Below are positions 2,275-61,723 of a stretch of 64,000 nt of DNA, one piece after another. The stretch is from the NCBI GenBank assembly GCA_030390025.1, contig CM059441.1:62496001-62560000 (forward strand), given 5' to 3'. The notes under the pieces were generated by a model. That model had not been told where the DNA came from and made no database searches. It was given only the letters and a program-made list of their open reading frames with translations. This DNA is from Squalus acanthias (Eukaryota). Each line of letters begins with the position of its first letter. Positions within the stretch are counted from its first letter, which is position 1. A program made the position numbers and the translations under genes.

Positions 2275-2320
2275 CTGGTAGCAAGTGGAGAAAGATTGGC
2301 ATCAATCTGAGGACCTCCAT
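2275..2320 (-). CDS. Gene D leader (signal peptide) exon, probably Siglec-like; gene continues off the left edge
   Basis: Acceptor tttgtgtttag| (exon starts 2334), ATG at 2320, MEVLRLMPIFLHLLP plus one base, phase-1 donor CAG|GTACAT. The paralogous segment at 17553-17700 lies just upstream of a Siglec V remnant. Confidence 0.65.
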
Positions 2321-3194
2321 CTTCAGTTCCTCTCCTAAACACAAAAATAAAAATAGGAAGTCTTTTTTAACAAGTCTGACCCAGCATTCCTTCCTCAACA
2401 ACTTGCATCTAAATTGCAACTTTCAGGTCGAAAACAGCCCAAGATGTTTCACCAACGTCAAGCCAAGGAAGGAGAGATTGGGAAGGGATGGCCAAAACCA
2501 ACGGCATAAAGAAAAAATTAGTTGGCCTGTCATCTCCTTTGCTGGGTGTTGGATCTTGTTAGCCATGGCTCAGTGGGTTTATCACTCTCTCACTGCTGCC
2601 TCTGAGTCAGAAGGTTGTGGGTTTGAGTCCCTGCTCCAGAGAATTTGAACACATATTCCAGTGAAGTGGGGGAAAGAGTTAAAATGACATTGCTGGCAGT
2701 TACACTGAATGGTGTAAGAATGACAGGGGCGAACATGAAAGGCCACATCCATAAAGAGGCGGTCAAGATAGCTGGCCTTTGAAGACTAAAAAAGCAATTA
2801 AGTGGAGACAGGGTTCTAGAATTTCAGCTACCCTTAAGAACTTTATTATCTGGGTCACATTCCAAGTTATCTTTTGATCAGCATTCAGCAGTTTGAGTGA
2901 ATGACTGAGGAGGCACCTTACACATGTTTACCTCAGGACATGTAACCAATCCGTGAAGGTGCATGCGGGCCAAGATCCAATCAGGTTGCAGGAATGAATA
3001 GTGCATGATCCGGCCATGTGTATTTTAATGTATAAAAATGTAGTGTTTGCTGTAACAATTTGGAGAAGTCTGGCTGAAGATAGAGCAGATTGTCTCCCCA
3101 TCGGTGCATTAAAGATAACTTGACTATCGATCTGAAAACCTTGTGTCGAGTGTTGGTTTAAAATACTCCACAACATCAGGCAGACAGTCCCTGG

Positions 3195-3830
3195 CGCCAG
3201 TATTGAGGAAGCGCTGCCCTGTCAGAGCACTGCAGTGTCGAAAGGGGCAGTACTGAGGGAGTGCTGCACTGTTGGAAGGGGAAGTACTGATGGAGCACTG
3301 CACTGTCGGAAGGGGCAGTACTGAGGAAGTACTGCACTGTCGGAAGGGGCAGTACTGCAGGAGTGTTGCACTGTCGGAAGGGGTAGTACTGACAGAGCAC
3401 TGCACTGTCGGAAGGGGCAGTACTGAGGGAGTGCTGCATTGTCAGAAGTGGCAGTACTGAAGGACTGCTGCACTGTCGGATGGGGCAGTACTGAGGGAGT
3501 GCTGCATTGTCGAAAGGGGCAGTACTGAGGCAGCGCTGTACTGTTGGAGGTGCCATCTTTTGGATGAGACGTTAAACCGATGCCCATGTCTGCCCTCTCG
3601 GGTGGACGTAGAAGATCTCAGGGCCACTATTTTGAAGAGCAAGGGAGTTCTCCTGGAGCCAATATTTATCCCTGAACTTACATCTCTCAAAAATAGCATC
3701 CCTGGACATTACCAAAATGCTATTTGTGGCACCTTGCTGTGTGAAAATTGGCTTCCGCATTTCATACATTGCGACATTACAAAAAGAGAACTCAGTTGTA
3801 AAGTGCTTTGGGACGTCCTGAGGTCGGGAA
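3195..3830 (+). mobile_element. Deu-domain SINE (SacSINE1/AmnSINE-like) carrying ~10 copies of a 33-bp minisatellite
   Basis: Array ~3200-3545 followed by SINE body GGATGAGACGTTAAACCG..GGTGGACGTA..AATATTTATCCCT..GGGACGTCCTGAGG. Confidence 0.85.
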
Positions 3831-3878
3831 ATGAACAAGGGTTTCACCCAAGGATGAAAACACCTTGGTTCTACTTAC

Positions 3879-3997
3879 TGAAGAATCCCCCCTGGGTTGC
3901 AGGTTGAATCCTGTCGGACGAGCAGTTAGTTTGATCCACTTCAGCTCCCTGATGTAAACCTGGAAGTGTTGAGTTGAACGGGATCGTAGGCGATCAA
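3879..3997 (-). other. Candidate non-coding first exon of gene D
   Basis: Ends in donor TTCA|GTAAGT; highly similar inverted copy at ~14108-14225; contains CACTTCC ETS-like cores. The start is approximate. Confidence 0.45.
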
Positions 3998-4284
3998 TTT
4001 TCACTTCCCACTGCAACGGGCTAGAGGCGATTGGGAGTGATCCGAGTTTAAGAGGATGTGAATCCTGTGGGTCAGATGGTTTCTGACGTGAAGCTTCCTA
4101 TATGTCCTTATTTGGGGCAGTGGGCGTCAAGTTGTGATAATTATTTTAAAACTGTGCAACCACATACGGTCCATTTTTATCATCGACCGTTTGTGACAGA
4201 CTAGTGCACAGAAACACACAGCAATCTCAGCGAGAGGCGGAAATTGGTCCATAGTCAAGTATGAAGCTGTAAACTCAACAGTCC

Positions 4285-6590: not shown

Positions 6591-6616
6591 AATGGTGTAA
6601 GCCAGGTGGGTAGCAA

Positions 6617-9135: not shown

Positions 9136-9149
9136 TCGTGCACTTGTCC

Positions 9150-9530: not shown

Positions 9531-9544
9531 GTTGTAATGACATT

Positions 9545-14095: not shown

Positions 14096-14282
14096 AGAAA
14101 GAGAAAACTAATCGCCTACGATCCCGTTCAACTGAACACTTCCAGGTTTACATCAGTGAGCGGAAGTGGATCAAACTAACTGCTCGTCCGACAGGATTCA
14201 ACCTGCAACCCAGGGTGATTCTTCAGTAAGTAGAACCAAAGTGTTTTCATCCTCGGATAAAATCCCCTGTCCCTGAATATCT

Positions 14283-15699: not shown

Positions 15700-17410
15700 A
15701 AATGAACACAAAAAACCTCCCTGGGATATCGGGAAAAATAGGGACATTGGCAAAGGAGGAACTGATGCAAATCAATATCTCTAAGGATATGGTGTTAAGG
15801 AAGCTAAAGGGATTGAAGGCGGACAAATCCCCAGGGCCTGATAACATGCATCCTAGGGTACTGAAGGAGGTGGCCCTAAAGATAGCGGATGCACTAAGTA
15901 TGATTTTTCAGAATTCATTAGACTCGGGAACAGTGCCCATGGATTGGAGGGTAGCTAACGTTACCCCACTATTCAAAAAGGGGGGTAGGGAAAAAGCAGG
16001 TAATTACAGACCTGTAAGCCTTACATCAGTTGTGGGCAAAATGCTGGAGTCCATCATTAAGGATGAAATAGCGGAGCACTTAGCAAATGGGGACAGGATA
16101 GGACAGAGTCAACATGGATTTACAAAGGGTAAATCGTGCTTGACTAATCTATTGGAATTTTTTGAGGGAGTAACTGGTAAAATAGATGGGGGAGAGCCAG
16201 TAGATGTGGTGTACCTGGACTTCCAAAAGGCCTTCGATAAGGTCCCACATAAAAGATTAACATGGAAAATTGAAGCTCATGGGATAAAGGGGAAAGTATT
16301 GACGTGGATAGAGAACTGGCTGTCAGATAGAAAACAGAGAGTTGGAATAAACGGCTCATTTTCTGAATGGCAGGCAGTAACAAGTGGGGTACCACAGGGA
16401 TCTGTCCTGGGTCCCCAGCTGTTCACAATTTACATTAATGACCTGGATCAGGGAGTCGGATGCAGCATTTCCAAATTTGCAGACGACACTAAACTAGGAG
16501 GGGGGGTGGGCTCAGAGGAGGAGACCAGGAAGCTCCAGAGCGATTTGGACAGACTGGGTGATTGGGCGGATAAAAGGCAGATGCACTATAATGTGGACAA
16601 GTGCGAAGTTATCCACCTTGGGTGCAGGAACGGGAGGGCAAATTATTATTTAAATGGCAATAAATTGGGAGAGGGGGAAGTACAGAGAGACCTGGGTGTT
16701 CTTGTACACCAGTCACTGAAGGCGAGCATGCAGGTGCAACAGGCGGTCAAGAAGGCAAATGGTATGCTGGCCTTCATAGCAAAAGGGTTGGAATACAGGA
16801 ACAGGGATACCTTGCTGCAGCTGTACAGAGCAATGGTGAGACCACACCTCGAGTACTGTGTACAGTTTTGGTCGCCTCATCTGAGGAAAGATGTTCTTGC
16901 CATGGAGGGGGTGCAGCGGCGATTCACCAGGCTGATACCAGGAATGGCGGGATTGACCTATGAGGAGAGACTATGTAGTTTAGGGATGTACACACTGGAG
17001 TTTAGAAGATTGAGAGGGGACCTCATAGAAGTGTATAAAATTCTGACAGGTCTAGACAGACTAGATGCAGAAGGAATGTTTCCCTTGGCGGGTGAGAACA
17101 GAACTAGAGGACATAATTTAAGGATAAGGGCTAAACCATTTAGGACAGAAATGAGGGGGAATTTCTTCACTCAGAGGGTGGTGAACCTGTGGAGCTCATT
17201 GCCACAGAGGGCAGTGTACGCCAGCTCATTAAATATATTTAAGAGGGAATTAGATATATTTCTACAGGCAAAAGGGGTTAAGGGTTACGGAGAGAAGGCG
17301 GGGACGGGATACTGAATTGGAGGATCAGCCATGATCTCATTAAATGGCGGAGCAGGCTCGAAGGGCCGGATGGCCTACTCCTGCTCCTATCTTCTATGTA
17401 TCTATGTATT
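15700..17410 (+). mobile_element. Young CR1 LINE, 5'-truncated, with an uninterrupted 537-aa RT-containing ORF
   Basis: KSPGPD, NYRPVSLTS, QHGF..KSCLTNL, YLDFQKAFDKVPH, GVPQGSVLGP, KFADDTKL; CR1 3' UTR and tail; no endonuclease domain. Confidence 0.96.
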
Positions 17411-17793
17411 CCAGATTTCCTTATCCATTCCCTGGTCAATCATGGGAATAGGAGGAGGCCATTCAGCCCCTCGAGCCTGTTCTGACATTCAATTCGATCA
17501 TGGAGGATCTGCAATCCAAGGAAGATTGAGAGAAGCACTACATGAAACATTTCAATCTTTCTCTGCTTGCTGCCAGGTACAATTTACTTTCTGAGCTGAA
17601 TTCAGGAAATTGGATTCATTCTAGCCCTTGGATTGAGAGAGCAGCCACTTAATGAAAGGGAACAGATTTGTCCTTCAATCATAGAGTGAGCAGATATAGA
17701 ATCATAGAATCATACAGCACAGAAGGAGGGCGTGCGGCCCATCGTACCTTTTGAAAGTTACCATTGAATCTGCTTTCAACTTTTTTCTTTCAG

Positions 17794-17939
17794 TCTTGGG
17801 TGGAGATTTGGAGCAGATGAATTGCTCCTTGAGGTTCAACAATCTCAGACCGGATGACAGTACCGTGTATTACTACTATGTGGATTTCCAGGGCTTCAAG
17901 GATCGTACTTTCACAGACCCGTCCAGCTGCAGGTTGCCC
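17794..17939 (+). pseudogene. Remnant of a Siglec-type V-set exon (strands D-G)
   Basis: LGGDLEQMNCSLRFNNLRPDDSTVYYYYVDFQGFKDRTFTD, then after a 1-nt shift VQLQVA|GTAAGT (phase 1). GD-xxx-NCSL and D-xxx-Y match the Siglec V pattern. Confidence 0.75.
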
Positions 17940-21974: not shown

Positions 21975-22014
21975 ATGGTCAGGAAATCTTACTTTATCCT
22001 GTCACTTCTCCAAG
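21975..22014 (+). CDS. Gene A (Siglec-like) leader exon
   Basis: Acceptor tttctgtttcag| (exon starts 21933), MVRKSYFILSLLQ, phase-1 donor CAAG|GTAATA. Joins in frame to AVLSQEW of the V exon. Confidence 0.85.
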
Positions 22015-26089: not shown

Positions 26090-26458
26090 CTGTATTGTCG
26101 CAAGAGTGGAAAGGCGACATTCCACGAAATGTGACAGCACAGAAAGGTTTGTGTGTGCAGATTCCATGTCATTACAGTTATCCATCGCGTCTGGCAAACC
26201 AGCCGCGAGATGGAGTCTGGTTTAATACCGAGGAACAGAAAACATGGGCTCCCCTAGCCTTTCACTCCAAGGATCACAATCATGAGTCGCCACGGTTACG
26301 CCATCGGACCCGGCTGTCTGGAGACCTGAAAGATGGCGACTGTTCACTGATTATAAACGATATCACACCGGAAGATGCAGGTCCTTATTTTTTCAGAATA
26401 GAATTTGACAACAGCGAGAATCATAACTACTACCCTGCAACACGGCTTCATGTTTCTG
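26090..26458 (+). CDS. Gene A Siglec V-set domain exon
   Basis: 369 nt, phase 1/1. QEW..GLCVQIPC..GVWF..RTRLSGDLKDGDCSLII..DAGPYFFRIE..YY: Siglec cysteine pattern and the essential F-strand Arg (cf. CD33 YFFRME). Confidence 0.93.
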
Positions 26459-27720: not shown

Positions 27721-28014
27721 GTTTCACAGATACAACCACGATATTCCCTGCTGAAATTATTGCAGGAAAGCGTGTGGACATAAGCTGCACCTTCAACACC
27801 ATGTGCAATGGAACAGCACCTGTCTTAACCTGGGTCAAAGCTGCTGACATACCCGGGTCAGTCTCAAACAGTGTAACTCAGCATGGCATCACTCTGACAT
27901 ATACTACAGTTCTGACCCTGATCCCATCACTAAATCACCACGGGCAAACTCTCACCTGCAGAGTCAGTTATCCATCTGTTTCATCTGAGCGGACCCTCGC
28001 ACTAACTGTGCAAT
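27721..28014 (+). CDS. Gene A first C2-set exon
   Basis: 294 nt, phase 1/1. ISCTFNTMC..PVLTW..VLTLIPS..HGQTLTCRV, with the extra Cys typical of the Siglec inter-domain disulfide. Confidence 0.92.
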
Positions 28015-28279: not shown

Positions 28280-30963
28280 GGCTGCGATTTTGCGATTGGA
28301 GGCGGGATGGTGACAGGTCCGCTGTACGGCTCCCGGTTCCCGCCGCCCTGCAGTTAAATTTTCCGTTGATTTGCTTCGTTAAGGCTGACGTGCGGGTTCT
28401 CCAAGGCAATTGCTGGGTGTGGGTCAGTTGCTCGCGTCTGATGAAGCGATGTTGGACTGATTATTTAAAGGGGCCATGTCCCCTCTGCAGATTCATTTCC
28501 GTTTTGTTCCGAGGACTCTTGTGGAGGGAGTAAGTGGATGTAAGGAGACAGAAGGAGGAGGCCTCCTCAGCATAGCAAGGCAGCTTGGCTGCAAATTGCT
28601 GAGGAGGTCAGTTCGAGGGCGGTCTGCACACGCACCTGGGTGCAGTGTCGCAAGAGGTTTAATGATCTGTTGCGATCAGCAAAAGTGAGTATAACATCAC
28701 ACTTACCTTCAGTCTGCCTCCCATCTCTTCTCATCCCCATCACTCTGCATTGGCAACCTTCCCCTGCACATTCCAAATCACTCTAACATCCCTTGCACCC
28801 TCACCCATCCCTCTCTTTCTCTATACAGAATCACGTCACCATCTTAATATTCATCACTCACACTCATATGCAATGGCAACGACTAACAACGCACAGGGAG
28901 GGAACTTGGTTTGTGCACCTCACTCCTTCATAAGTCTCCCTCTAAACATCTATGTCATCCATTCTTTACACTCACTCCATCAATCTCTCTCAAACTCCAC
29001 TTGTGTCCCTCATTACAGAAGAGAGCCCACGATAAAAGGGAGAGGGGGAGGACAGGAGGACTCCCACCATCCATGGCGCCCCTAACGAGCGCTGAGGAGG
29101 CAGCCCTGGAGATCGTCGGAGGTGCAGAGGAGCTGGAAGTGGGGGACGGAGAGATGGGCATAGAACAACAAGCTGGTGACAGAATTGATTTCCAACTCTC
29201 TGATTTACCATTCATGAGTGACTAATATGGGAGATGATGTTCATAGAGATTGAGTGCTAAGCATCTGCACAATGGGATGTATCTGCAACATACATTTCAC
29301 TTGTCTAACTCATGCCTTTACTCCCCCACAGGACCATTGAGTGCCCCGCTCCCCACTGTCCAGGAGGAAGAGCAGGAGCACTCCTCAGAGGAACCACCAG
29401 TCTCTGAGGGAGCAGTGTCACCAGCATTCAGCGCACCCAGCACCAGCACAGAGACGCACACCTCTGGGTTTTTTGCGAGATAGAGTAGTGTTGTCACCTA
29501 GTGTATCACAGCTCCCAAGTGAGCAGGAACAGATGTTGGAGACAGGTACAGCAGTGCAGGATCCTCGGCGGAGGACACAGGGCTCTCCCAGCTCTGCTCA
29601 GCTGCATATAAATGCTAAGCCTCTGGGGCCATCCAGAAAGAGAGCAGTGCTGGAGCTTCAGGAACAAGTGCAGGAGGTTCTGAGTGGGTTTGCTTCCACG
29701 GTAACTGCGAGTGTGCAGAGAATGGAGGAATCCATCTTAAAGATTAGCAATGCCATGGTGAACGGTATTGGCAATCTAGGTGCTGCCATGGAAAGCATGG
29801 CAACCTCCATGGAGGACCTAACTCGGCAGACACAAGCCAACATGGTGGCTCTTCTAGATAGATGGGCAGCTATGGAGGATAGAAGGCCATCTATCGTGGA
29901 GAGGAACCAGAGGTACATGGACGTCCCGGTGAGGACTGTCAGTACAGAGACGGGTCCACATGGCCCCACCGATGGTGCTCTCCAGCAACTTGCTGGCAGT
30001 GAAGTGTGGGTGACCCATGAGAGGGACGGCGGTGTTTGAGCACCAGGAAGTGGGGGCTCCACTCCAAGCGCTCACACTCCCTTGCCACTGCCGAGCCCTC
30101 AGTCAGAGCCCCATCTGCCTGAGCCAAGAGAGATGGCTGAGTCTGCCCCTGCAAAGCCGCAGGAGGAGCAGACTTTGGCGGGGCTCTCCAAGGCTCCCAA
30201 ATCCAGAGGACAGCCGCCAAAAGCGTCTAAGCAGGAGCAGCAGGGAAGTGAGTCGGCTGCATTCACATACGCTGAAGCCACAGGGGTCTCACAACGCAGA
30301 AGCACGTGTAAGAGCAAGATGTCACGTTAATAATCACAAGGGTTCTCACTGGGGTGTTATGATAGATTTATTTGTAAAGTTTCTGTTCTTTGCCAATATT
30401 GTGATAAATTGATGTAGAACGAAGGTTTGGCATCGTTGTCATGTGTGCTGACAATTTGAGGTGGCACAGTTTAGGGTAAGTGCGCCTTTAAAATCCAGCA
30501 ATGCAGGTTACAGTGGCTCTGTAGTGCACAACACATACTTGCAGCCGAAACACAGAATATGCCCCCCAAATTATTCAATCAGCAACCTCACAAATTTCTA
30601 AATGACTAGATTTGAATGTGCAGCTTTTACACTGCAGTTGCAGCTGTGAAGTCTCCAGCTCACTGGTGTTCAGGTCTCTTACCTGGTGTGTTGTCGGAAC
30701 ATCGTGAAACTTGACCCAGAAGCTGGAAAATCCAAAAACCCTGTGAAAATAGCTCTAAACTACCACTTAATAGGCAGTTAAGTGCCTTTAATCCCTTTCC
30801 CGCCGCTTGGTGTCGGGTCCGTTTGCAAATCGGAGACCCGACATTCGGGAAAGTTGCGTGGAGGCGGGATCACGGCGGGTTCGGAACCCGCCATCAATCA
30901 TTGTGAATTTAACCTCTGACCTGCATTCAATCCCGCCCTCTGAGCACCGGTAAAATTCCGGCC
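28280..30963 (+). mobile_element. Non-autonomous Harbinger-like transposon (2.7 kb) carrying a Myb/SANT-like gene
   Basis: Imperfect TIRs GGCTGCGATTTT / AAAATTCCGGCC, 3-bp TSD AAA, inserted in a SINE. Spliced AAWLQIAEEVSSRAVCTRTWVQCRKRFNDLLRSAK|KRAHDKRERGRTGG..LTSAEEAALEI (exons ending 28684, 29019-29175, 29332-~30330 with frameshifts). No transposase. Confidence 0.85.
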
Positions 30964-31092
30964 AAAGTGTCTGCCTGGATTACGTGCTCTGTGATGAAGG
31001 AACTTGCATGGATATAACACTTTTCACGTTCTCAGGGTCTCTCAAAGTGCTTCACTGACAATGTAAGTTAACTGATCTTTATTTGTTTTTAG

Positions 31093-31374
31093 ATGCACCA
31101 CAGAATCTCTCCATTACTTCTCTTGCTACGATTAACAATTCATCGATCAATATAAATGAAGGGAATTCTACAGTGATACTCTGCTCTGTCGCGAGCTTCC
31201 CAGCCTCGAACCTGACGTGGCGACATCTTGGTGTCACAATGAACAGAACAAGTTCCAAAAACGAGCTGTTGTTGGAGTTTGCTCATGTTACACCCAGGGT
31301 CACTGGAGACTATCAGTGTGTGGCGGAGAATGAACATGGAGCAGTGAAGAGGACCATAACCATCACTGTGGAAC
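31093..31374 (+). CDS. Gene A second C2-set exon, copy 1
   Basis: 282 nt, phase 1/1; YAPQNLSI..EGNSTVILCSVASFPASNLTW..GDYQCVAENEHG. Confidence 0.9.
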
Positions 31375-31761
31375 GTGAGTGTGCAGATACTTCCACATCT
31401 CTCCAAATACGAACAAATTAATATCTATGGGTTACTGTGGAATTTACAAAGTGTCTCTGGCCGGAACTATGTTAGTAACAGTAAGGGATCGTTCTGTGTG
31501 ACTGAGGAGTCACCAGACTAATACACAGACTCACACTGACAGACACACACACACATACAAAGATGCACAGACACAGACACAGACACACACACACAGATAC
31601 ATATATAAATGATACTTATATGGATATTACATGTATAGATCTTACATATATAGGTATCCCTGGGATCATATAGGTATCACTTCTCAAGTTCAGAATAAGT
31701 AGAAGTACATCGGAGCACTGTTCTGTAACTGTACTGCAGTAATTAATGGCTGTTTTTGCAG

Positions 31762-31864
31762 GTAGAGATTCCAATGAGTGGAAAGTAGGATTGATTGCAG
31801 CTGGAATCATTTTGAGTGTTGCACTGGCTGGATTCTTAATCTTAATCTTCAAGTGTGCAAGAAA
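31762..31864 (+). CDS. Gene A transmembrane exon, copy 1
   Basis: Acceptor tgtttttgcag|, RRDSNEWKVGLIAAGIILSVALAGFLILIFKCARK, phase-2 donor AA|GTAGGT (read-through gives TAG). Not in the ORF track. Confidence 0.85.
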
Positions 31865-32146: not shown

Positions 32147-34518
32147 GCAGCTTGGCTGCAAATTGCTGAGGAGGTCAGTTCGAGGGCGGTCTGCACACGC
32201 ACCTGGGTGCAGTGTCGCAAAAGGTTTAATGATCTGTTGCGATCAGCAAAAGTGAGTATAACATCACACTTACCTTCAGTCTGCCTCCCATCTCTTCTCA
32301 TCCCCATCACTCTGCATTGGCAACCTTCCCCTGCACATTCCAAATCACTCTAACATGCCTTGCACCCTCACCCATCCCTCTCTTTCTCTATACAGAATCA
32401 CGTCACCATCTTACTATGCACCACTCACACTCATATGCAATGGCAACGACTAATAACGCACAGGGAGGGAACTTGGTTTGTGCACCTCACTCCTTCATAA
32501 GTCTCCCTCTAAACATCTATGTCATCCATTCTTTACACTCAATCCATCAATCTCTCTCAAACTCCACTTGTGTCCCTCATTACAGAAGAGAGCCCATGAT
32601 AAAAGGGAGAGGGGGAGGACAGGAGGAGTCCCACCATCCCTGGCGCCCCTAACGAGCGCTGAGGAGGCAGCCCTGGAGATCATCAGAGATGCAGAGGAGC
32701 TGGAAGTGGGGGACGGAGAGACGGGCATAGAACAACAAGCTGGTGACAGAATTGATTTCCAACTCTCTGATTTACCATTCATGAGTGACTAATATGGGAG
32801 ATGATGTTCATAGAGATTGAGTGCTAAGCATCTGCAACATACATTTCACTTGTCTAACTCATGCCTTTACTCCCACACAGGACCATTGAGTGCCCCGCTC
32901 CCCACTGTCCAGGAGGAAGAGCAGGAGCACTCCTCAGAGGAACCACCAGTCTCTCAGGGAGCAGTGTCACCAGCATTCAGCGCACCCAGCACCAGCGCAG
33001 AGACTCACACCTCAGTGGGTTTTTTGCGAGATAGAGTAGTGTTGTCACCTAGTGTATCACAGCTCCCAAGTGAGCAGGAACAGATGTTGGAGACAGGTAC
33101 AGCAGTGCAGGATCCTCGGCGGAGGACACAGGGTTCTCCCAGCTCTGCTCAGCTGCATGTAAATGCTAAGCCTCTAGGGCCATCCAGAAAGAGAGCAGTG
33201 CTGGAGCTTCAGGAACAAGTGCAGGAGGTTCTGAGTGGGTTTGCTTCCACGGTAACTGCGAGTGTGCAGAGAATGGAGGAATCCATCTTAAACATCAGTA
33301 ATGCCATGGTGAACGCTATGGGCAATCTAGGTGCTGCCATGGAAAGCATGGCAACCTCCATGGAGGACCTAACTCGGCAGACACAAGCCAACATGGTGGC
33401 TCTTCTAGATAGATGGGCAGCTATGGAGGATAGAAGGCCATCTATCGTGGAGAGGAACCAGAGGTACATGGACGTCCCGGTTATGAGGACTGTAAGTACA
33501 GAGACGGGTCCACATGGCCCCCACCGATGGTGCTCTCCAGCAACTTGCTGGCAGTGAAGTGTGGGTGACCCATGAGAGGGACGGCGGTGTTTGAGCACCA
33601 GGAAGTGGGCGCTCCACTCCAAGCGCTCACACTCCCTTGCCACTGCCGAGCCCTCAGTCAGAGCCCCATCTGCCTGAGCCAAGAGAGATGGCCGAGTCTG
33701 CCCCTGCAAAGCCGCAGGAGGAGCAGACTTTGGCGGGGCTCTCCAAGGCTCCCAAATCCAGAGGACAGCCGCCAAAAGCGTCTAAGCAGGAGCAGCAGGG
33801 AAGTGAGTCGGCTGCATTCACATATGCTGAAGCCACAGGGGTCTCACAACGCAGAAGCACGTGTAAGAGCAAGATGTCACGTTAATAATCACAAGGGTTC
33901 TCACTGGGGTGTTATGATAGATTTATTTGTAAAGTTTCTGTTCTTTGCCAATATTGTGATAAATTGATGTAGAACGAAGGTTTGGCATCGTTGTCATGTG
34001 TGCTGACAATTTGAGGTGGCACAGTTTAGGGTAAGTGTGCCTTTAAAATCCAGCAATGCAGGTTACAGTGGCTCTGTAGTGCACAACACATACTTGCAGC
34101 CGAAACACAGAATATGCCCCCCAAATTATTCAATCAGCAACCTCACAAATTTCTAAATGACTAGATTTGAATGTGCAGCTTTTACACTGCAGTTGCAGCT
34201 GTGAAGTCTCCAGCTCACTGGTGTTCAGGTCTCTTACCTGGTGTGTTGTCGGAACATCGTGAAACTTGACCCAGAAGCTGGAAAATCCAAAAACCCTGTG
34301 AAAATAGCTCTAAACTACCACTTAATAGGCAGTTAAGTGCCTTTAATCCCTTTCCCGCCGCTTGGTGTCGGGTCCGTTTGCAAATCGGAGACCCGACATT
34401 CGGGAAAGTTGCGTGGAGGCGGGATCACGGCGGGTTCGGAACCCGCCATCAATCATCGTGAATTTAACCTCTGACCTGCATTCAAGCCCGCCCTCTGAGC
34501 ACCGGCAAAATTCCGGCC
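32147..34518 (+). mobile_element. Harbinger-like Myb element, copy 2 (5'-truncated by the tandem duplication)
   Basis: Near-identical to 28580-30963. Confidence 0.85.
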
Positions 34519-34645
34519 AAAGTGTCTGCCTGGATTACGTGCTTTGTGATGAAGGAACTTGCATGGATATAACACTTCACGTTCTCAGGGTCTCTCAAAG
34601 TGCTTCACTGACAATGTAAGTTAACTGATCTTTATTTGTTTTTAG

Positions 34646-34927
34646 ATGCACCACAGAATCTCTCCATTACTTCTCTTGCTACGATTAACAATTCATCGAT
34701 CAATATAAATGAAGGGAATTCTACAGTGATACTCTGCTCTGTCGCGAGCTTCCCAGCCTCAAACCTGACGTGGCGACATCTTGGTGTCACAATGAACAGA
34801 ACAAGTTCCAACAACGAGCTGTGGTTGGAGTTTGCTCATGTTACACCCAGGGTCACTGGAGACTATCAGTGTGTGGCGGAGAATGAACATGGAGCAGTGG
34901 AGAGGACCATAACCATCACTGTGGAAC
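34646..34927 (+). CDS. Gene A second C2-set exon, copy 2
   Basis: 282 nt, intact; differs from copy 1 at three residues (K/N, L/W, K/E). Confidence 0.88.
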
Positions 34928-35318
34928 GTGAGTGTGCAGATACTTCCACATCTCTCCAAATACGAACAAATTAATATCTATGGGTTACTGTGGAATTTAC
35001 AAAGTGTCTCTGGCCGGAACCATGTTAGTAACAGTAAGGGGCCGTTCTGAGTGACTGAGGAGTCACCAGACTAATACACAGACTCACACTGACAGACACA
35101 CACACATACACAGATGCACAGACACACACACACACACACACACTGACACACAGATACATACATAAATGATACTTATATGGATATTACATGTATAGATCTT
35201 ACATATATAGGTATCCCTGGGATCATATAGGTATCACTTCTCAAGTTCAGAATAAGTAGATGTACATCGGAGCACTGTTCTGTAACTGTACTGCAGTAAT
35301 TAATGGCTGTTTTTGCAG

Positions 35319-35421
35319 GTAGAGATTCCAATGAGTGGAAAGTGGGATTGATTGCAGCTGGAATCATTTTGAGTGTTGCACTGGCTGGATTCTTAATCTT
35401 AATCTTCAAGTGTGCAAGAAA
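35319..35421 (+). CDS. Gene A transmembrane exon, copy 2
   Basis: 103 nt, same peptide and splice sites as 31762-31864. Confidence 0.85.
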
Positions 35422-36043
35422 GTAGGTGGAAAGGTTTAACATTTTTTTCAACATCCTTACTTCTCTCCTTAGGAAAAGAACCTACATTTATAAAGCACCT
35501 TTCATGACCTCAGGCTGTCCTAAAACGCTTTACAGCCAATGAAATAATTTTGAAGTGTCGTTACTGTTGTAAACTAGCGAAATGCGGCAGCCAATTTGCG
35601 CACAGCAATCTCCCACGAATAGCAATGAGATAACTGATCAGATAATCTGCATTTGCTGTTGGTTGAGGGATAATTACTGGCCCCAGGACACCGGGGAGAA
35701 CGTGCCTGCTCGTCTTGCAATAGTGCCATGGAATCTTTTACGTCCACCTGAGAGGGTAGACGGGGGCCTCGGTTTAACGTCTCATCCGAAATACGGCACC
35801 TCGGACACTCCTCAGTACCAGCACTGGGAGTGTCGGCCTGGATTATAAAGTGATGTGGGACGTCCTGAGGTCATGAAAGTTGCTATAGAAATGCAAGTCT
35901 TTCTTTCTTTGTTTCGGGGATTCAAGCCCCGCCTGATATCTTACTGCATAAAGTGGGTCAGGTGGGGCCAAACTTTCAAAGGTTGAGAACCAGAACAAGA
36001 TAATATGCTTATAAACGTACAGTATAGTAACACGCAAACACAT

Positions 36044-36728
36044 AGGGGGAATTTTAACCCCAAAAAACGGGAGGGTTGGGGTCGAGGTGGAGATCAAAGT
36101 GTTAAATATCTGAATCCCGACCCCAACCCGGCTCCAACCCACTCTCTTCCGGGTTTAACAGAGGCGGTATGGGGGTGCGGGCCAACCTGCACACAGAAGA
36201 TGGGTTGGCACTTTAAATATTATGAGGCTTTGTGCCCAACAGTAAACTCCATTTTAAATTTAACTGTGGGCGGTTGGGTTTCCCAGGCCTCGGGAAACCC
36301 GGCAGCTAAAGGGAGGCGAGAACTGCTGGATCTAGGAGGTAAGTGCCTTTCCAGTTACCTGCTGGACCCAGGATTCCTGTTCCCCAACCCCTCGTGATCG
36401 GGCACCCCCACAGACCCTTCCGATCGCCCCTCGACCTCCCTACCGGGGCCTCCGATCTCCCCCCCACGAGGCCCGATCCCTCCCTTCCGCCCTCTGCTCT
36501 CCAGCACCCTCCGATCCCAGCTTTCTACCTCCTCCTGATCTACCTCATCCAACGATGCCGTCCTTCCTAACCAGTACCACCCCCGCCCGATCTCCAACGA
36601 TGCCGTCCTTCCTAACCAGCACCACCCCCGCCCGATCTCCAACGATGCCGTCCTTCCTAACCAGCACCATCCCCCCCGCCCGATCTCCAACGATCCCGGA
36701 CTTTGACGATCCCAGCCTTCCTAACCCC
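36044..36728. mobile_element. Harbinger-like MITE fragment with a ~45-bp tandem repeat (x3 here, x1 in the mirror copy ~42351-42945)
   Basis: GGGGGAATTTT terminus and GC-rich subterminal region; repeats TCCAACGATGCCGTCCTTCCTAACCAG at ~36548-36690. Confidence 0.6.
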
Positions 36729-37194
36729 CAATGTTCCCTCTAATTTTTTTTTGTACTGATCCTGCCACGAACTCCTTTGAGCGTGACCTTTTGTACAACA
36801 ACAACTTACAACAATGACAGCAACAGCAACAATCGTACAAGGTTCTATACATGTTTAACATAACTTCTCTGCTTTTGAATTCTGTGCCTCTAGAATGAAC
36901 CCCAGTGCTTTATTTGCACTTTTGTGGCTTTTTTAACCTGCGTTGTTACTTTTAATGATTTATGAATCTATACCCCTAGATCTCTTTGCACCTCTACCCC
37001 ATTTAGATTCTTATTTTCCAAGGACTAGGTCGCCTCCTTATTCCTGCTACCAAAATACACCACCTCACACTTATCTATATTGAAATTCGTTTGTCATTTA
37101 CATGCCCATTCTGCAAGTTTGTTTACGGTAGAATTAGTTAAAAGCTTTTAGTTCATCATGTACAAACTGTATTTAAAAATAAATTATTTGTCAG

Positions 37195-37296
37195 AAATAA
37201 CTGGGATATAAAAGAACTGCATAATAATGCATTAACGCTTCAGAAACGCCACTCAGTTACACGATTATGCATCGACAACCAATCCAAAAGCCCAAG
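37195..37296 (+). CDS. Candidate cytoplasmic exon of gene A
   Basis: tttgtcag| ... AAG|GTGAGC. Only the phase-2 frame (compatible with the TM exon) is open: NNWDIKELHNNALTLQKRHSVTRLCIDNQSKSP. Confidence 0.45.
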
Positions 37297-39128
37297 GTGA
37301 GCTGAAAGAGGCATATCTATTTGTACAATTTGTATTAATTTTAAAGTTTTCAATGTATTAGTCCATCCCTCATGTCACTACAGCAATGGCTGCACAAGCA
37401 GCAGGAGCAGCGGCTGTCCTAAGGTGCTGACGTGCTGTACGTCCACATAAGTGATTAGAATATTAATCACAATGCAACCAGACACCCAACAAATATAAAG
37501 TGCTGTAGTTCTTTAGTTCACAGTATTAAAAAGAATTGAACAAACACGGGTATCCGTATTTTCATCTTCAATCACTTCCATTACTAAACGTCTTCTTGAA
37601 CCAGCACGCCCCCCCATGTAACATGTCAGAAATGCAGCACTTATTCACAAGTGCAGAAAAACACATTCACAATTTGCGTCACCAAATTAAAAACAAAAAC
37701 AGGAAGCGCTATGGATTTAACAGAAATCAACATTCATCTTTCTTCCTGGACAGGAGAGCCAATCAGACTGACTTGTAAATGTTTACTAATATGGTGATGT
37801 AAAGATGTAAATTTACGCATTTCGCTTCTAATGTTTTTCTCTCAAAAATTCACCACAATATTAATCCCTGCTCTTATCACGAAAAGTGTTGAATTATTTT
37901 AGGTACTTCGCAATTAAATAGCAGGAAACAAACTTCATTGTACTCTCAATTTTTAACCTCCTATTTCAAACATTTATACCAAATCAAAATTGTACATTAT
38001 CAGTTTAATCAAAGTATTTTCTGTGTCTTTCTCAATAAACAAATAGTGGTTTCTTCTAAAGTAGCTTCCTGCAATTTTTTACAAATCATTACATAACTCT
38101 TGTTTCTATTAACACTCCACTAAACGGTTAAGAGGAAATCTATATTTACATTATTCCTGAGACTTATTTGGATTATACAACGAGAGACAAAATAAAATGG
38201 TTTGTGTTTTTCCCCTTTTTTGGTTCCCTTCCTAAACGTCTTAATATATTTTTTTAAAAGTCAATAAAAAGTAATATGTAACTCCTACAAATCCTCCCCG
38301 CCCTCCTCCTCCTCCTCAACAACATGGTTGCATGTTTGTGCAAAGCTCTTCACTTCAGTTGATCGCTCAATATCAAATATTGAGAAATTTCAATTTAAAA
38401 TGTTTTAAACAATTCAGAGCCTCGTTAAAAGCATTTGGACTTCAAGACCTGGTTGAAACGTGTTTAGATGAGGGGAACATTGATTGTTGCTTGGTTCTTC
38501 CAAAATCATATTCGAAACTTAGGGGGGATAAAAGTGTTTAACACTCATTTTTAGGGAAAAGTTCATTAAAAATCTTTCAAGTCTCGTTGCAGCTTTGACA
38601 GAAGAAGTTGCTCCAGGTTTCTCTTTCCCTCTTCAATGCTGTCATTAAACAGACCACAAAAAGATAATAAAATAAACTCTAATTCCAAACGAAGCTCAAA
38701 TAAGAAGTGAACAAAGTGGTTAAACTTCCTAAGAAGGCGGTGAGGTTATCGATCCCCAGCGTTGGCGATGAGTTGGGATCAGTTTTGGAAAAGTTGTCTC
38801 CTCTTTTTCTGCTGCTGTTCCCTCCGTCTCTCACAGACTCTGAGGTTCAAACGGGGGCACAAACTTTTTCCCCTCTCTCATAACATGATTTAAATAACCC
38901 TGATAGACTCTTTCAAAAAGGGGACAACACCTGGCAAAATTTAACTGGAACTTACATTCAACATCACTTTCCCATATTTATTTCCGGCTTTAAACAATTT
39001 TCTGAATTTTTTTTTTTTTAATTTTACTGCGGGCCTAAAAATTGTTGGCTTTAGCCTCCTTCCAGCGGCCATTGTACATGTGCTGCGCCTCCACCTGTGT
39101 TGTCCCAGTCCCAGTCTCTCTCTCTCTC

Positions 39129-39628
39129 NNNNNNNNNNNNNNNNNNNNNNNNNNNNNNNNNNNNNNNNNNNNNNNNNNNNNNNNNNNNNNNNNNNNNNNN
39201 NNNNNNNNNNNNNNNNNNNNNNNNNNNNNNNNNNNNNNNNNNNNNNNNNNNNNNNNNNNNNNNNNNNNNNNNNNNNNNNNNNNNNNNNNNNNNNNNNNNN
39301 NNNNNNNNNNNNNNNNNNNNNNNNNNNNNNNNNNNNNNNNNNNNNNNNNNNNNNNNNNNNNNNNNNNNNNNNNNNNNNNNNNNNNNNNNNNNNNNNNNNN
39401 NNNNNNNNNNNNNNNNNNNNNNNNNNNNNNNNNNNNNNNNNNNNNNNNNNNNNNNNNNNNNNNNNNNNNNNNNNNNNNNNNNNNNNNNNNNNNNNNNNNN
39501 NNNNNNNNNNNNNNNNNNNNNNNNNNNNNNNNNNNNNNNNNNNNNNNNNNNNNNNNNNNNNNNNNNNNNNNNNNNNNNNNNNNNNNNNNNNNNNNNNNNN
39601 NNNNNNNNNNNNNNNNNNNNNNNNNNNN
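39129..39628. other. Scaffold gap (500 N) flanked by (CT)n and (GA)n
   Basis: Directly visible. Confidence 1.
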
Positions 39629-39663
<35 letters not shown>

Positions 39664-43567: not shown

Positions 43568-43670
43568 TTTCTTGCACACTTGAAGATTAAGATTAAGAAT
43601 CCAGCCAGTGCAACACTCAAAATGATTCCAGCTGCAATCAATCCCACTTTCCACTCATTGGAATCTCTAC
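43568..43670 (-). CDS. Gene B transmembrane exon
   Basis: 103 nt, same peptide as gene A. Confidence 0.85.
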
Positions 43671-44071: not shown

Positions 44072-44351
44072 GTTCCACAGTGATGGTTATGGTCCTCTTC
44101 ACTGCTCCATGTTCATTCTCCGCCACACACTGATAGTCTCCAGCGACCCTGGGTGTAACATGAGCAAACTCCAACCACAGCTCGTTGTTCGAACTTGTTC
44201 TGTTCATTGTGACACCAAGATGTCGCCACGTCAGGTTCGAGGCTGGGAAGCTCGCGACAGAGCAGAGTATCACTGTAGAATTCCCTTCATTTATATTGAT
44301 CGATGAATTGTTAATAGTAGCAAGAGAAGTAATGGAGATTCTGTGGTGCAT
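44072..44351 (-). pseudogene. Gene B second C2-set exon with a 2-bp deletion
   Basis: 280 nt versus 282; AATCTCTCCATT becomes AATCTCCATT, giving YAPQNLHYFSCYY*. Confidence 0.8.
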
Positions 44352-47436: not shown

Positions 47437-47730
47437 ATTGCACAGTTAGTGCGAGGGTCCGCTCTGATGAAACAGATGGATAACTGACTCTGCAGGTGAG
47501 AGTTTGCCCGTGGTGTTTTAGTGATGGGATCAGGGTCAGAACAGCAGTATATGTCAGAGTGATGCCATGCTGAGTTACACTGTTTGAGACTGACCCGGGT
47601 ATGTCAGCGGCTTTGACCCAAGTTAAGACAGGTGCTGTTCCATTGCACGTGGTGTTAAAGGTGCAGCTTATGTCCACACGCTTTCCTGCAATAATTTCAG
47701 CAGGGAATATCGTGGGTGTATCTGTGAAAC
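47437..47730 (-). CDS. Gene B first C2-set exon
   Basis: 294 nt, open, canonical splice sites. Confidence 0.9.
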
Positions 47731-49018: not shown

Positions 49019-49387
49019 CAGAAACATGAAGCCGTGTTGCAGGGTAGTAGTTATAGTTATCCCTGTTGTCAAATTCTATTCTGAAAAAATAAGGACCTGC
49101 ATCTTCCGGTGTGATATCGTTTATAACCAGTGAACAGTCGCCATCTTTCAGGTCTCCAGACAGCCGGGTCCGATGGCGTAACCGTGGTGACTCATGATTG
49201 TGATCCTTGGAGTGAAAGGCTTGGGGAGCCCATGGTTTCTGATCCTCGGAATTAAACCAGACTCCATCTCGCGGCTGGTTTGCCAGACGCGATGGATAAC
49301 TGTAATGACATGGAATCTGCACACACAAACCTTTCTGTGCTGTCACATCTCGTGGAGTGTTGCCTTTCCACTCTTGCGACAATACAG
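49019..49387 (-). CDS. Gene B Siglec V-set exon
   Basis: 369 nt, open, essential Arg (YFFRIE) retained. Confidence 0.92.
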
Positions 49388-54959: not shown

Positions 54960-55443
54960 ATCAAGAAGTAGAATCAGTTTGGGTGCAGCTAAGGAACAGC
55001 AAAGGAGAGAAAACATTGGTGGGAGTTGTTTATAGGCCCCCAAACAGTAGTTGTTATGTAGGGCGGAGTATAAATCATGAAATTAGAGGCACATGTAACA
55101 AGGGTAATAAAGTAATCATGGGGGACTTTAATCTACATATAGACTGGGCAAACTAATTTGCAGTAATAGTGTGGGGGACGAGTTCATGGAATGTATACAA
55201 GATAGTTTTCTAGATCAGTATGTTGAGGAACCAACTAGGGAACAGGCTATTTTAGATCTAGTATTGTGCAATGAGAAAGGGTGAATTAATTAATAACATT
55301 GAAGTAAAGGTGCCTTTAGGGAAGAGTTGACCATAATATGATAGAATTCTATATTGAGTTTGAAAGTGATTTAAGACCACGAAACTAGGGTCTTAAATCA
55401 AAACAAAGCAACTACATAGGTATGAGGGGCGAGTTGGCTAAAG
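54960..55443 (+). mobile_element. CR1 endonuclease-domain fragment
   Basis: VESVWVQL..LVGVVYRPP..IMGDFN..PTREQAILDLVL. Confidence 0.88.
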
Positions 55444-56755: not shown

Positions 56756-56795
56756 CTTGGAGAAGGGACAGGAGCAAGTAAGAATTCCTGACCAT
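56756..56795 (-). CDS. Gene B leader exon
   Basis: MVRNSYLLLSLLQ, phase-1 donor CAAG|GTAAT, acceptor tttctctttcag| (exon starts 56837). Confidence 0.8.
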
Positions 56796-57885: not shown

Positions 57886-58449
57886 GTACAGTGGGTTTAT
57901 CAGTCTCTCTCTCTCTCTCTCTCTCTCTCGCATCTGAGTCAAAAGTTCGTGGGTTCAAGTCCACGCTCCAGAGACTTGAGCCCCATAATCCAAACCTACA
58001 CTCCCAGTGCAGTACTGAGGGATATAGATATAGATGTTGGTTTGTATTGAATGCTCAGTCCAGGGGGAAAAAAGGCGTCTAAATGGGGTAGAGGTGCAAA
58101 GGGATCTAGGGGTATAGATTCACAAATCATTAAAAGTAGCAACACAAATTAAAAAAGCCATAAAAGTGCAAGTAAAGCGCTGGGCTTATTTCTAGAATAG
58201 AATTCAAAAGCAGGGAAGTTATGTTAAACTTGTATGGAACCTTGTCTGATTGTCTCATGATTTGAGATGGTGTGGTGGCAATATGGCATTACTGTATAAA
58301 TGCTTTTAAGTGATTGCTGTTGCTGTCATTTTTGTAAAAGTTGTTCTTGTTGTTGTTGTTGTTTTAAAATTTGCTCTCGGACGAAAAGGTCATGCTCTAA
58401 GGGGTTCATGGCCCGCTCAGTACAAAAATAAATTAGGGGGAACATTAGC

Positions 58450-58935
58450 TATGTCCCCCTAGTCCTAGATTCACCAGCCAGCGGAAATAGTTTCTCTCCA
58501 TCTACCCTATCAGTTCCCCTCAAAATCTAGAAAACTTCAATCAAATTATCCCTTAACCTTCTAAATTCCAGGGAATATAATCCTAGTTTGTGTAATTTCT
58601 CCTCATAATTTAACCCTTGGAGTCCCAGTATCATTCTGGTAAATCTACGCTGCGCTCCCTCCAAGGCAAATATATCCTTCCTAAGGTGTGTTGCCCAGAA
58701 CTTAATACAGTACCCCAATATAACCCTAGTTTGTGCAACCTCTTTTCATTTTTACTTAACCCCCAGCCTCAACATCTTTTCGGGGGGGAGAGTTCCAGAT
58801 TTCCACTACCCTTTGTGTGAACAAGTGCTTCCTGACATCACCCCTGAATGGCTGAGCTCTAATTTTAAGATTATGCCCTGTTGTTCTGGACTCCCCCCAC
58901 CAGAGGAAAGAGTTTCTCTCTATCTACCCTATGAA
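58450..58935 (-). mobile_element. CR1 fragments
   Basis: LEGAQRRFTRMI..LEFRRLRDNLIEVF. Confidence 0.8.
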
Positions 58936-59391
58936 ATTTAGGACAGTTGACCAAAAGCGTGGTCAAAGAGGGAGGTTTTAAGGAGCGTCTTAAAGAAGGA
59001 AAGAGAGGTGGAGAGGCGGAGAGTGTATGTATGTGTTAATGCACGTGCGACTGCGACTCAAACACCACGGGCAAACTCACCTGCAGAGTCAGTTATCTAT
59101 CTGTTTCATCAGAACGGACCTTAGTACTAACTATGCAGTGTACGTATGGACATCCTTTATTCTACATTACCTGTAATAGTCTACAATGCGCACAGCAAGA
59201 TCCCACATATAGCAATGTGCTGACGACCAGATCATCTGTATTTTACTGATAAAAATTGGACATCAGGAAGAACTCTTCTTTGAATAGTGTCATGGGATCT
59301 TTGACTTTGCATAGTATTTGTAAAATCCACAGTCTCCTGTGGATATTAGCTGTTTGTATTTGGAGAGATGTGAAAGTATTTATATACTCAC

Positions 59392-61723
59392 GGTCCACAG
59401 TGATGGTTATGGCCCTCTTCACTGCTCCCTAAGCTGGGAAGCTCTCTACAGAGCAGAATATCACTGCAGAATTCCCTTCTTTTATATTGATCGATGAAAG
59501 TTTAATCATATCAAGAGAAGTAATTGATATTCCGTGGTGCCTCTAAAAACAAATAAATATCAGTTAACTTAACTTACTGAGGGAGTGCCGCACTGTCGGA
59601 GGTGCTGTCTTTCACAAGAGATGCTAAACCAAGGACCCATCTGCCTCTCAGGTGGGTGTAAAAGATCCCATGACACTATTCAAAGAAGAGTTCTTCCTGA
59701 TGACCTGGCCAATTTTTATCAGTAAAATATAGATGATCTAGTCATCAGCACATTGCTATATGTGGGATGTTGCTGTGCGCAATGTAGACTATTACGGGTA
59801 ATGTAGAATAAAGGATGTCCATACTTGCATTGCACAGTCAGTGCTAGGGTCCGTTCTGATGAAACAGATGGGTAACTGACTCTGCAGGTGAGAGTTTGCC
59901 CGTGCTGTTTGAGTGATGGGACCAGGGTCAGAACAGAAGTATACGTCAGAGTGACGCCATGATGAGTTACACTGTTTGATACTGACCCAGGTACGCCAAC
60001 ATGATTGACCCAGGTTAAGACAGGTGCTGTTCCATTGCACGTGGTGTTGAAGGTGCAGCTTATGTCCAGACGCTTTCCTGCAATAATTTCAGCAGGGAAT
60101 ATCGTGGATTTGTCTGTGAAATCTAACGCACAGAAAAAAGATCCTTTTAGATAAATATAATTTGAAGCATCAGTTCAAATAGAAACCACCAGAGAAAGCA
60201 CTTTTACAAGGATGTTACCACAACTGAGAGGTTACAATGATAAGCAAAGGCTGAACAGGCTGGGGTTCTTTTCTCTAGAAAAGAGAGGCTGAGGAGTGAC
60301 CTGATGTAGGTCTTCAAAATTATGAAGGGATTTGATAGGATAGATGTAGAGAAGATATTTCCACTTGTGGGGAGTCCAAAACTAGGGGCCAACAATACAT
60401 GATAGTCACTAATAAATCCAATAGGGAATTCAGGAGAAACTTCATTACCAGGAAAGTGGTGTGAATGTGGAACTCACGACCACAAGTAGTGTTGTGGCCA
60501 ATAGCATAGATGCATTTAAGGGGTAGCTAGATAGGTACCTGAGGGAGAAAGCAGATAGGATTACATGAAGAAGAGTGCGAGGAGGCTCGTGTGGAGCATG
60601 GACCTGTTTTTCCGAATGTCTTGCTTCTGTGCTGTAGACTCAATGTAATTCTGTGCAACTATGTAAGAGAAAGTACTTTCCTATTTTCAGGCTTGGTGGG
60701 ATATCTGTCACTGCGCTTAATGTGCTTTCTCTAGGAGACCCTTGAACTGACAATAATGGGTGGGAGGTTGTAGAGCAGGTCACAATCGGAGAGCACTGAC
60801 TCGTCACTCTCTCAGAGATCTCTGCCAAATTTAAATTAAACTGTCCATGGCAGGGCGGAAACAATTTGCATTTTTCCCTCAACCAACACCTAAAACAGAT
60901 GATCAGGTCATTATCACATTGCTGTTTGTGGGAACTTGCTGTACCCAAATTGGCTGCCGCGATTCCTACATTACAATAGTGAATACACTTCAAATGTACT
61001 TCATTGGCTGTGAAGCACTTTGAGATGTCTTGAGGTCGTGAAAGGCGCTATAGAAATGCAAGTTCATTCTTTTGTCTCTTTTATGTACGACTTTTCAACA
61101 TGATTAGACAGACTGATCGGAGTCGATAACGTGATAACAGTGATGGACACATTCAAGACATTTAATCATTGATAATAAAGTGAGTATTAGAGGTTGCTTT
61201 AGGACTGAACTGGAAGGTATCGCCAGGTTACTGATAAGCAGACGCTGCATTATAATAAGCTGTGTTTATTGTTACTATGTAACCGCCACAGTTTATGTCC
61301 CTTTCCATTGACTGTTGAACGTGAATTGCCGAGTCATTATAACACAGCACTTACCAGAAACATGAAGCTGTGTTGCAGGGAAACAGTTAAACTTATCACT
61401 GTTGTTAAATTCTATTCTGAAAAAATAAGGCCCTGCATCTTGCTGTGTGATGTCGTTTATAATCAGGGAACAGTCACCATCTTTCAGGTCTCCAGACAGC
61501 CGGGTCCGATGGCGTAACTGTGGTGATGCGTGATTGTGATCCTTGGAGTGAAAGGCTAGGGGAGCCCATGGTTTCTGTTCCTCGGTATTGAACCAGACTC
61601 CAACTCGCAAATCATTTGCCAAGTGCGATGGATAACTGTAATGACATGGAATCTCTGCACACTAACCTACCTGTGCTATCACATCTCGTGGAGTGTCGCC
61701 TTTCCACTCTTGCGACAATACAG
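59392..61723 (-). pseudogene. psi-C: Siglec-like pseudogene (V 61355-61723, C2 59829-60122, deleted C2 59392-59542)
   Basis: In-frame TAG at 61662-61664 (GLC becomes G*C), GT>GC donor after the first C2, second C2 reduced to 151 nt, no TM exon found. Confidence 0.88.

Follow-up and report, generated by a model that had tools for sequence, protein, structure and literature searches.

The gene family described here, found in a 64,000-nucleotide stretch of the Squalus acanthias genome (the window; G000:C17:62496001-62560000 in a 3.7-Gb genome), has a close described counterpart in the CD33-related sialic acid-binding immunoglobulin (Ig)-like lectins (Siglecs) of mammals. The mammalian cluster and that in the window have in common a V-set domain with an arginine, few C2-set domains, a tail with tyrosine motifs, clustered copies, many pseudogenes and chimeric genes. 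For fish, the available portion of one paper (PMC7226832) regularly gives four Siglecs, with CD33-related members absent and sharks unmentioned in that portion, and the available portion of another (PMC8455134) mentions Siglecs once, among families assigned to the ancestor of jawed vertebrates. In the open-access literature no paper devoted to Siglec clusters of sharks was found, and subscription reviews and supplements (such as file 9 of PMC8455134) may cover them. The family is already known in the sense that it is automatically annotated in RefSeq in 20 shark and ray species, where models labelled 'sialic acid-binding Ig-like lectin 10/12/13/14' or 'MAG-like' belong to the same families and have the same exon types; these labels are automatic and give no function.

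Five Siglec-like loci, termed A, B, psi-C, D and psi-E, were examined. Coordinates follow window numbering, values below 1 or above 64000 lying in the flanks, and segments were located by six-frame translation and tblastn, which recovered every segment named in the initial annotation; the positions of all five loci and their division into two subfamilies (A-type and D-type V domains are ∼32% identical) were confirmed. Taken as a whole, the observations are best explained by a Siglec-like cluster organised as a same-strand tandem array, in which one contig has been reversed, B is a chimera, and D and psi-E represent a second subfamily, an explanation that is considered quite probable. In the assembled sequence four of the five loci are disrupted, in keeping with the birth-and-death evolution proposed initially, and only A reads as a complete gene in this assembly.

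Siglec identity and the essential arginine

The V domain of A gives Pfam V-set and Ig_CD22 matches, and its 17 best sequence matches in the PDB are Siglec-5, MAG, Siglec-10, -7 and -8, sialoadhesin and CD33 (E 8e-17 to 5e-12), the CD33-related Siglec-5 being the best of them. Its predicted fold (predicted local distance difference test, pLDDT, 91.9) has sialoadhesin and MAG as best Foldseek matches (template-modelling score 0.83-0.87), and the 34 best listed rows are all Siglecs. Three V-domain cysteines (C21 in the link between A' and B, C26 in strand B and C84 in strand E), together with a second cysteine in C2-1, reproduce the Siglec pattern of a putative B-E intra-sheet pair plus an extra cysteine in each of V and C2-1. 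The essential arginine (Arg102, strand F) aligns with that of Siglec-5 and MAG, Trp5 aligns with the MAG tryptophan, and a G-strand tyrosine is present. Among 99 A-type domains extracted from 100 matches (the remaining match yielded none), the arginine column holds Arg in 95, Lys in two, and Thr and Tyr in one each. The layout is that of a type I membrane protein, V followed by C2, with one phase-1 exon per domain and junctions represented in contigs. By V fold, cysteines, arginine and layout A is a Siglec, as initially annotated, while B and psi-C, which also have the arginine, are Siglecs by descent.

Mislabelling by similarity of non-Siglec V-set receptors of the CD300, pIgR or TIM kind was weighed at this point, since pIgR and TIM-3 appear among the weaker PDB matches (E 1e-6) and a few RefSeq labels read pIgR-like or hemicentin-like. 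However, the Siglec matches reach much lower E values, Cys21, Cys26, Cys84 and Arg102 are kept, and PDB matches, Foldseek and the tree described below all place A with Siglecs as opposed to another Ig family, such that this explanation is refuted for A and retains virtually no probability.

The V domain of D has MAG (Siglec-4) as its best PDB sequence match, with a near-matching F-G region, and a predicted fold (pLDDT 87.2) whose best matches are sialoadhesin, Siglec-8 and MAG (template-modelling score 0.80-0.88). Fold and cysteine pattern are therefore Siglec-like, but the canonical arginine is replaced by tyrosine in D, in psi-E and in the paralog D', and the proposal that the F-strand arginine defines these loci holds for A, B and psi-C only. 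Tyrosine occupies this position in 19 of 19 D-type shark and ray domains from 11 species (66-86% V identity; the partial match P0012 was excluded). In combining a Siglec fold with a replaced arginine, D resembles human Siglec-XII and great-ape Siglec-5/14, as the available part of PMC6288428 describes them, although the primate losses are recent whereas the D-type tyrosine is fixed. With this fixed tyrosine and an aromatic C-C' region, the D family is likely to bind a non-sialic ligand, or sialic acid in a non-canonical manner, to judge from its sequence.

A clade uniting D with gecko MAG was not rejected by the approximately unbiased test (p-AU 0.385); one uniting A-type and D-type proteins was tried and rejected (p-AU 0.005). 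D nevertheless differs from MAG in its tyrosine, in having four Ig domains, and in being multi-copy with many broken copies. Against shark proteins of both types, full-length gecko MAG reaches identities of only ∼27-32%, which falls short of establishing D as an orthologue of MAG, and a search of the assembly (G000) for a MAG orthologue with a stricter filter returned matches of 29-41% only, with no clear orthologue among them. On the sequence comparisons, D and psi-E constitute a second, MAG-leaning subfamily. A Siglec-like group from newt, turtle, gar and characin (P0119, P0120, P0125, P0164, P0213), which has tryptophan in the arginine column, falls near the D-type and MAG branches with weak support.

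The head-to-head arrangement of D(-) and psi-E(+) was borne out, both lying in continuous sequence of one contig (no N between -44600 and 39128), though psi-E is a scrap of leader and V, comprising three short inverted blocks, 87-92% like D and split by a long interspersed nuclear element (LINE). Matches to C2, transmembrane (TM) and tail exons were looked for downstream of psi-E and none was found; psi-E is a decayed inverted copy of the 5' end of D. SIGLEC11 and SIGLEC16 are also head-to-head according to the available part of PMC5701461; the present pair differs in that psi-E is a short remnant without coding potential and a charged-TM activating partner is absent from the window. D itself has one extra base in C2-1 (a +1 frameshift) just left of the window, relative to intact D' at -84566. 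The assembly holds 29 pieces matching the D-type V exon, most of them broken, and a D-type V exon with an open frame and 99% protein identity to D lies 1.3 Mb away (G000:C17:63799755-63800111). A 33-kb array of a 29-bp satellite (-62181..-28759), 98-99% homogeneous and containing a 200-N gap, separates the first tail exon of D (-20740) from a last-exon match at -62393.

Orientation of the 36.6-kb contig and the origin of B

As assembled, A(+) and B(-) stand tail-to-tail, and were initially taken with D and psi-E as two inverted pairs. The A/B arrangement sits exactly on a 500-N gap, which with a second gap of 200 N bounds a 36.6-kb contig carrying B and psi-C. Each gap lies in the middle of what looks like a palindrome (92-98%), and at both a copy of one dispersed element is broken off where its long pyrimidine tract lies. 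In the flanking paralog F, which is free of gaps here, the post-TM intron runs from sequence like A 35486-36045 / B 43504-42944 directly into sequence like 75769→75076(-) and 77188→(+), and then into both tail exons. At gap-free loci of the dispersed element, the A-end is followed by second-gap-side sequence on the same strand in four of 15 cases and in reversed orientation in none; the other 11 have no match to that sequence in the stretch examined. The spacers at the four loci measure 4.4, 5.9 and 15 kb of 84-88% pyrimidine and, in the fourth, ∼1 kb at 57%, the long ones being the kind of tract that leaves assembly gaps, since, according to the available part of PMC9668749, 10 of 15 gaps closed in a human assembly were occupied by GA-rich repeats. 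The element itself (36729-39107) is non-coding, with no long open reading frame (ORF) seen, and runs into a stretch of pyrimidines that can reach 15 kb; a first look gave 1308 candidates, of which 40 were scored at 84-90% alike, and it likely causes assembly gaps wherever it is present.

Sequencing runs bear on the same question (X7, X9 and X10 are presumed to be RNA, with the tissue record absent; X1 and X3 are DNA, X3 having been read to ∼55%). In contig X7/21 the end of C2-2 is followed by the TM exon, matched without a single difference, and this in turn by 30 nt that agree fully with tail exon 1. At 99-100% identity, the assembly has the TM exon only in A (twice) and B, and tail exon 1 only at two places, 75260(-) and 78575(+), both of which the contig matches. 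The exon at 78575 is frameshifted and, after the contig is flipped, pairs with the frameshifted B. Most likely, therefore, the scaffold placed the 36.6-kb contig backwards and the A/B pair is not a real inversion; the flipped order would give a tandem array A–psiC–B–psiC'–F. Of the two inverted pairs, that of D and psi-E stands and that of A and B probably does not, and the geometry of the cluster is probably half artefact, one pair being real with a remnant for a partner.

A genuine inverted duplication with A and B tail-to-tail, homogenised by gene conversion as in primate SIGLEC11/16, would account for the assembled order, for the 95-97% identity of the arms and, by analogy, for the real inversion of D and psi-E nearby within one contig. 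It would, however, require two breakpoints at the same position of two element copies, each inside an N-gap, and would leave B without a downstream tail and one intact tail without an upstream gene, whilst the gap-free element copies run in the flipped orientation. Moreover, SIGLEC11/16 are head-to-head with ∼3 kb of 5' exons in common (PMC5701461, available part), whereas A and B differ in the leader and share the 3' part. Such an inversion is thus regarded as very unlikely.

B has the same exon set as A, except that C2-2 and TM are single-copy. The flipped contig is 92-98% identical to the next contig in most 1-kb windows from 76269 to ∼55443, and 95-99% identical to A in 1-kb windows from ∼55441 to 39629, the two parts of the contig showing substitution divergences of 2.24% and 3.38%. 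On this sequence evidence B is a chimeric duplicate, with the leader of F and the body of A. A single tandem duplication of a segment comprising the A body, tail, psi-C and F leader could have generated both chimeric B and the pair psi-C and psi-C' (2-3% divergence), with B decaying afterwards, unless its frameshift is an error of the assembly. B can be accounted for without the gene conversion between inverted copies that was initially proposed. The position of psi-C(-) was upheld at 61723-59392; its defects are a TAG stop in V at 61664, a GC donor after C2-1 and an internally deleted C2-2, and its TM exon was not found. The near-copy psi-C' at 92936(+) carries the same V stop. In paralog F (flank 101967-113500) the V exon is frameshifted close to its end, a C2-2 match is lacking and the TM helix contains a Glu; a small post-TM 'exon' was dropped after homologues set two real tail exons. 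An ORF at 52203-51877(-) with two ITIM-like strings (ITIM, immunoreceptor tyrosine-based inhibitory motif) was considered as a tail exon and assigned to intron, as five homologous regional copies all have stops.

The contig could instead derive from the other haplotype, in which case A would really continue into the contig that begins at 76470, with B and psi-C as allelic or haplotype-specific copies. It is gap-bounded and mirrors both neighbours, the DNA contigs show only the A form at 44316/44334, and contigs from other samples mix A and B letters. Yet contigs drop minor variants, so the absence of the B form is weak support; substitution divergence of 2.2-3.4% is accompanied by kilobase indels; the F-leader/A-body junction, present within one contig and absent from A, needs a duplicated A body on at least that haplotype; and A would be given the frameshifted tail. 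Haplotype duplication is accordingly not a simple answer and is judged unlikely, although B may be haplotype-restricted and its frameshift an assembly error.

Several observations weigh against the reading of a reversed contig and a chimeric, decayed B. Since no read or contig spanning either gap was found, the flip is one that we infer. As assembled, A(+) could splice to the tail at 78575(+) across 43 kb, albeit to a frameshifted exon, and contig X7/21 fits B, or else the first C2-2 of A in a join with TM', and, deriving from a different sample, is not assignable to A. The 2-nt deletion of B is unseen in X1 and X3, and the same caveat on minor variants applies; one B-type letter (43799) occurs in both runs. 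The frameshift in D is likewise that of the assembly and may be an error there.

Structure, expression and putative function of A

A tandem duplication of 3.55 kb doubles the C2-2 and TM exons of A (Table 1). Its copies carry an insertion in the C2-1/C2-2 intron with a Myb/SANT-domain ORF (28544-28783, also 32117 and, in B, 46907), likely a piece of a transposon on the basis of its sequence and presumably of Harbinger type. The earlier statement that splice phases are consistent holds for A, whose Ig exons are all phase 1 with GT-AG ends, but not for B, with its 280-nt C2-2, or for D, with its frameshifted C2-1. No cytoplasmic exon was found downstream of A or B in the window, the tail exons lying at 75260-71719(-) and 78575-81940(+). 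Joined to the exons at 75260-75176 and 71835-71719, A forms an open frame of 523 amino acids, with GT-AG ends at all seven introns and matching phases, encoding V, three C2 domains, an uncharged TM segment and two tail tyrosine motifs, IYENC and VYANV. Y-x-N is a Grb2-type pattern, and both motifs conform to it. A tail-less product by read-through of the TM exon into an in-frame TAG, possible from the sequence, was set aside, as a contig shows splicing at the phase-2 donor.

The first mapping of contigs from the presumed-RNA runs was dominated by repeats, with no leader or TM joint among its matches. Contigs from X7 and X10 are identical to A over stretches of V and C2-1 in which B has 10, 5 and 4 differing sites; in one, the match to A V ends at the donor and 117 further letters follow. 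In contig X7/24 a C2-2 end is joined to an intact C2-2 start, indicating that both C2-2 copies of A are used and the first TM exon is skipped. A is thus apparently intact and, the runs being presumed RNA, transcribed.

In the proposed mechanism, A would be a leukocyte surface receptor, likely binding sialylated self-glycans through its V-domain arginine, whose tail tyrosines, once phosphorylated, would recruit SH2 proteins and likely damp or tune signalling; these roles are drawn from general Siglec biology (including the available parts of PMC6288428 and PMC5701461). The TM cores of A, B and D are uncharged, so the charged residue of activating Siglecs is missing. The tail of A, with YENC and YANV, departs from the ITIM plus ITIM-like pair of mammalian CD33-related Siglecs. 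Weighing against an inhibitory tail, the last motif of A carries a Pro at position -2 and the first has Cys as its final residue, so neither conforms to the strict ITIM consensus, [I/V/L/S]-x-Y-x-x-[L/V] in the available part of PMC7226832; in the homologues P0038 and P0052 position -2 is Ser, and these conform. By analogy, an inhibitory or tuning role for A is somewhat favoured.

Differences between the V exons of A and B comprise 11 replacement and two silent changes, and those between D and D' nine and one; the counts are small for a ratio of replacement to silent change (pN/pS), and the excess in these sequences hints at diversifying selection. In A, B, F and D' the leader is closely preceded by a copy of tail exon 1 (20042-20604, 57885-57316, 96430 and -73854, respectively), and the Heptranchias model P0059 seems to hold such a piece at its start; these copies may be leftovers of tandem duplication or a reused 5' untranslated region (UTR) exon. 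A 33-bp minisatellite attached to a repeat resembling a short interspersed nuclear element recurs through the cluster and produces long spurious ORFs (7129-9094, 18661-19348, 20423-21430, 3230-3548, 57322-57523).

Table 1. Features of the Siglec-like loci in and beside the window (window numbering)
Feature	Position	Strand	Remarks
D remainder, left of window	V -2979..-2623	-	then C2-1, two more Ig exons, TM, tail exons
D leader exon	2275..2320	-	46 nt, phase 1; sole part of D inside window
D upstream block	3835..4006	-	splice donor, likely 5' UTR exon; 92% to psi-E 14270-14099
psi-E upstream-block copy	14099..14270	+	inverted relative to D
LINE reverse-transcriptase ORF inserted in psi-E	15702..17312	+	RVT_1, E 1e-30
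psi-E leader remnant and donor	17553..17710	+	5' end gone; 91% to D 2298-2141
psi-E V remnant	17794..17939	+	last third of D-type V exon, Tyr at Arg position
A leader exon	21975..22014	+	
A V-set exon	26090..26458	+	Siglec cysteine pattern, F-strand Arg; presumed-RNA contigs match, 0 differences
A C2-1 exon	27721..28014	+	extra Cys expected to pair with V domain
A tandem duplication, 3.55 kb	28580..35705	+	copies 28580-32148 / 32147-35705, 1.7% substitutions
A C2-2 exon, copy 1	31093..31374	+	
A TM exon, copy 1	31762..31864	+	left out of C2-2 to C2-2' spliced contig
A C2-2' exon, copy 2	34646..34927	+	
A TM' exon	35319..35421	+	uncharged core, phase 2; spliced to tail exon 1 beyond gap
Composite insertion, A post-TM intron	36044..39128	+	ends in dispersed element cut at start of pyrimidine tract
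Scaffold gap, 500 N	39129..39628	.	left end of 36.6-kb contig (39629-76269)
B TM exon	43568..43670	-	identical to A TM'
B C2-2 exon	44072..44351	-	280 nt vs 282; 2-nt deletion near start, a frameshift in the assembly
B C2-1 exon	47437..47730	-	
B V-set exon	49019..49387	-	Arg present; 91% amino-acid identity to A
B intron 1 junction	55441..55443	-	paralog-F-like above, A-like below
B leader exon	56756..56795	-	85-nt stretch ending with leader identical to F, differs from A
psi-C	59392..61723	-	V 61723-61355, C2-1 60122-59829, C2-2 59542-59392
Scaffold gap, 200 N	76270-76469	.	closes 36.6-kb contig

Extent of the family and its significance

Of 100 matches to the A V exon, 99 were named and all came from sharks and rays (20 species), from which the cartilaginous-fish identity of the sequence follows. 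Full-length homologues show 50-85% V identity to A, and the C2-2 motif is doubled in 19 of 100. The assembly holds at least 39 A-type V exons of at least 100 residues, a lower bound, with 67-100% identity and six containing stops, distributed over contigs C17 (19), C3542 (11), C3 (4), C3426 (4) and C1048 (1). Elsewhere (G000:C30:6.0-8.0 Mb), several dozen V-exon matches at 22-32% identity mark another large cluster, of a more distant Ig family.

A tree was built from V and C2-1 for 49 rows picked from 298 stored proteins and three models of our own, with automatic labels for reference names and curated sialoadhesin and Siglec-15 left out. It resolves shark/ray A-type (100/99), D-type (100/100) and tetrapod CD33-like (99/92) clades, in agreement with the independent cartilaginous-fish expansion proposed initially; the A-type clade stands beside the CD33-like clade at 53/44 only. 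The sequence data thus support a copy-level expansion separate from that of mammalian CD33-related Siglecs and older than this species. Three homologues (P0101, P0106, P0114) join a D-type head with tyrosine to A-type C2-2, TM and tail exons, which may reflect exon shuffling or annotation read-through.

A more far-reaching reading, offered tentatively and more doubtful than otherwise, is of a two-branch shark and ray Siglec system as large as the mammalian one. Its arginine branch would be the elasmobranch counterpart of CD33-related Siglecs, dated to early jawed vertebrates, and its MAG-related branch would have fixed tyrosine before the shark-ray split and would recognise a ligand that is conserved and not sialic acid; tandem duplication would have exchanged heads, stalks and tails between genes. 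The swapping is suggested by the chimeric junction of B and by the D-type heads on A-type stalks.

N-gap-centred inverted pairs in such clusters can be scaffolding artefacts, which part a gene from its signalling tail and bias the number of receptors scored as 'tail-less'. For the biology of the family, A provides an intact, apparently transcribed gene that is available to test, and the branch with a fixed Arg-to-Tyr change offers a test of whether the Siglec fold serves a different ligand there. That the family extends across elasmobranchs, and numbers at least 39 V exons in this species, means that lineage-level expansion of Siglecs is not restricted to tetrapods.

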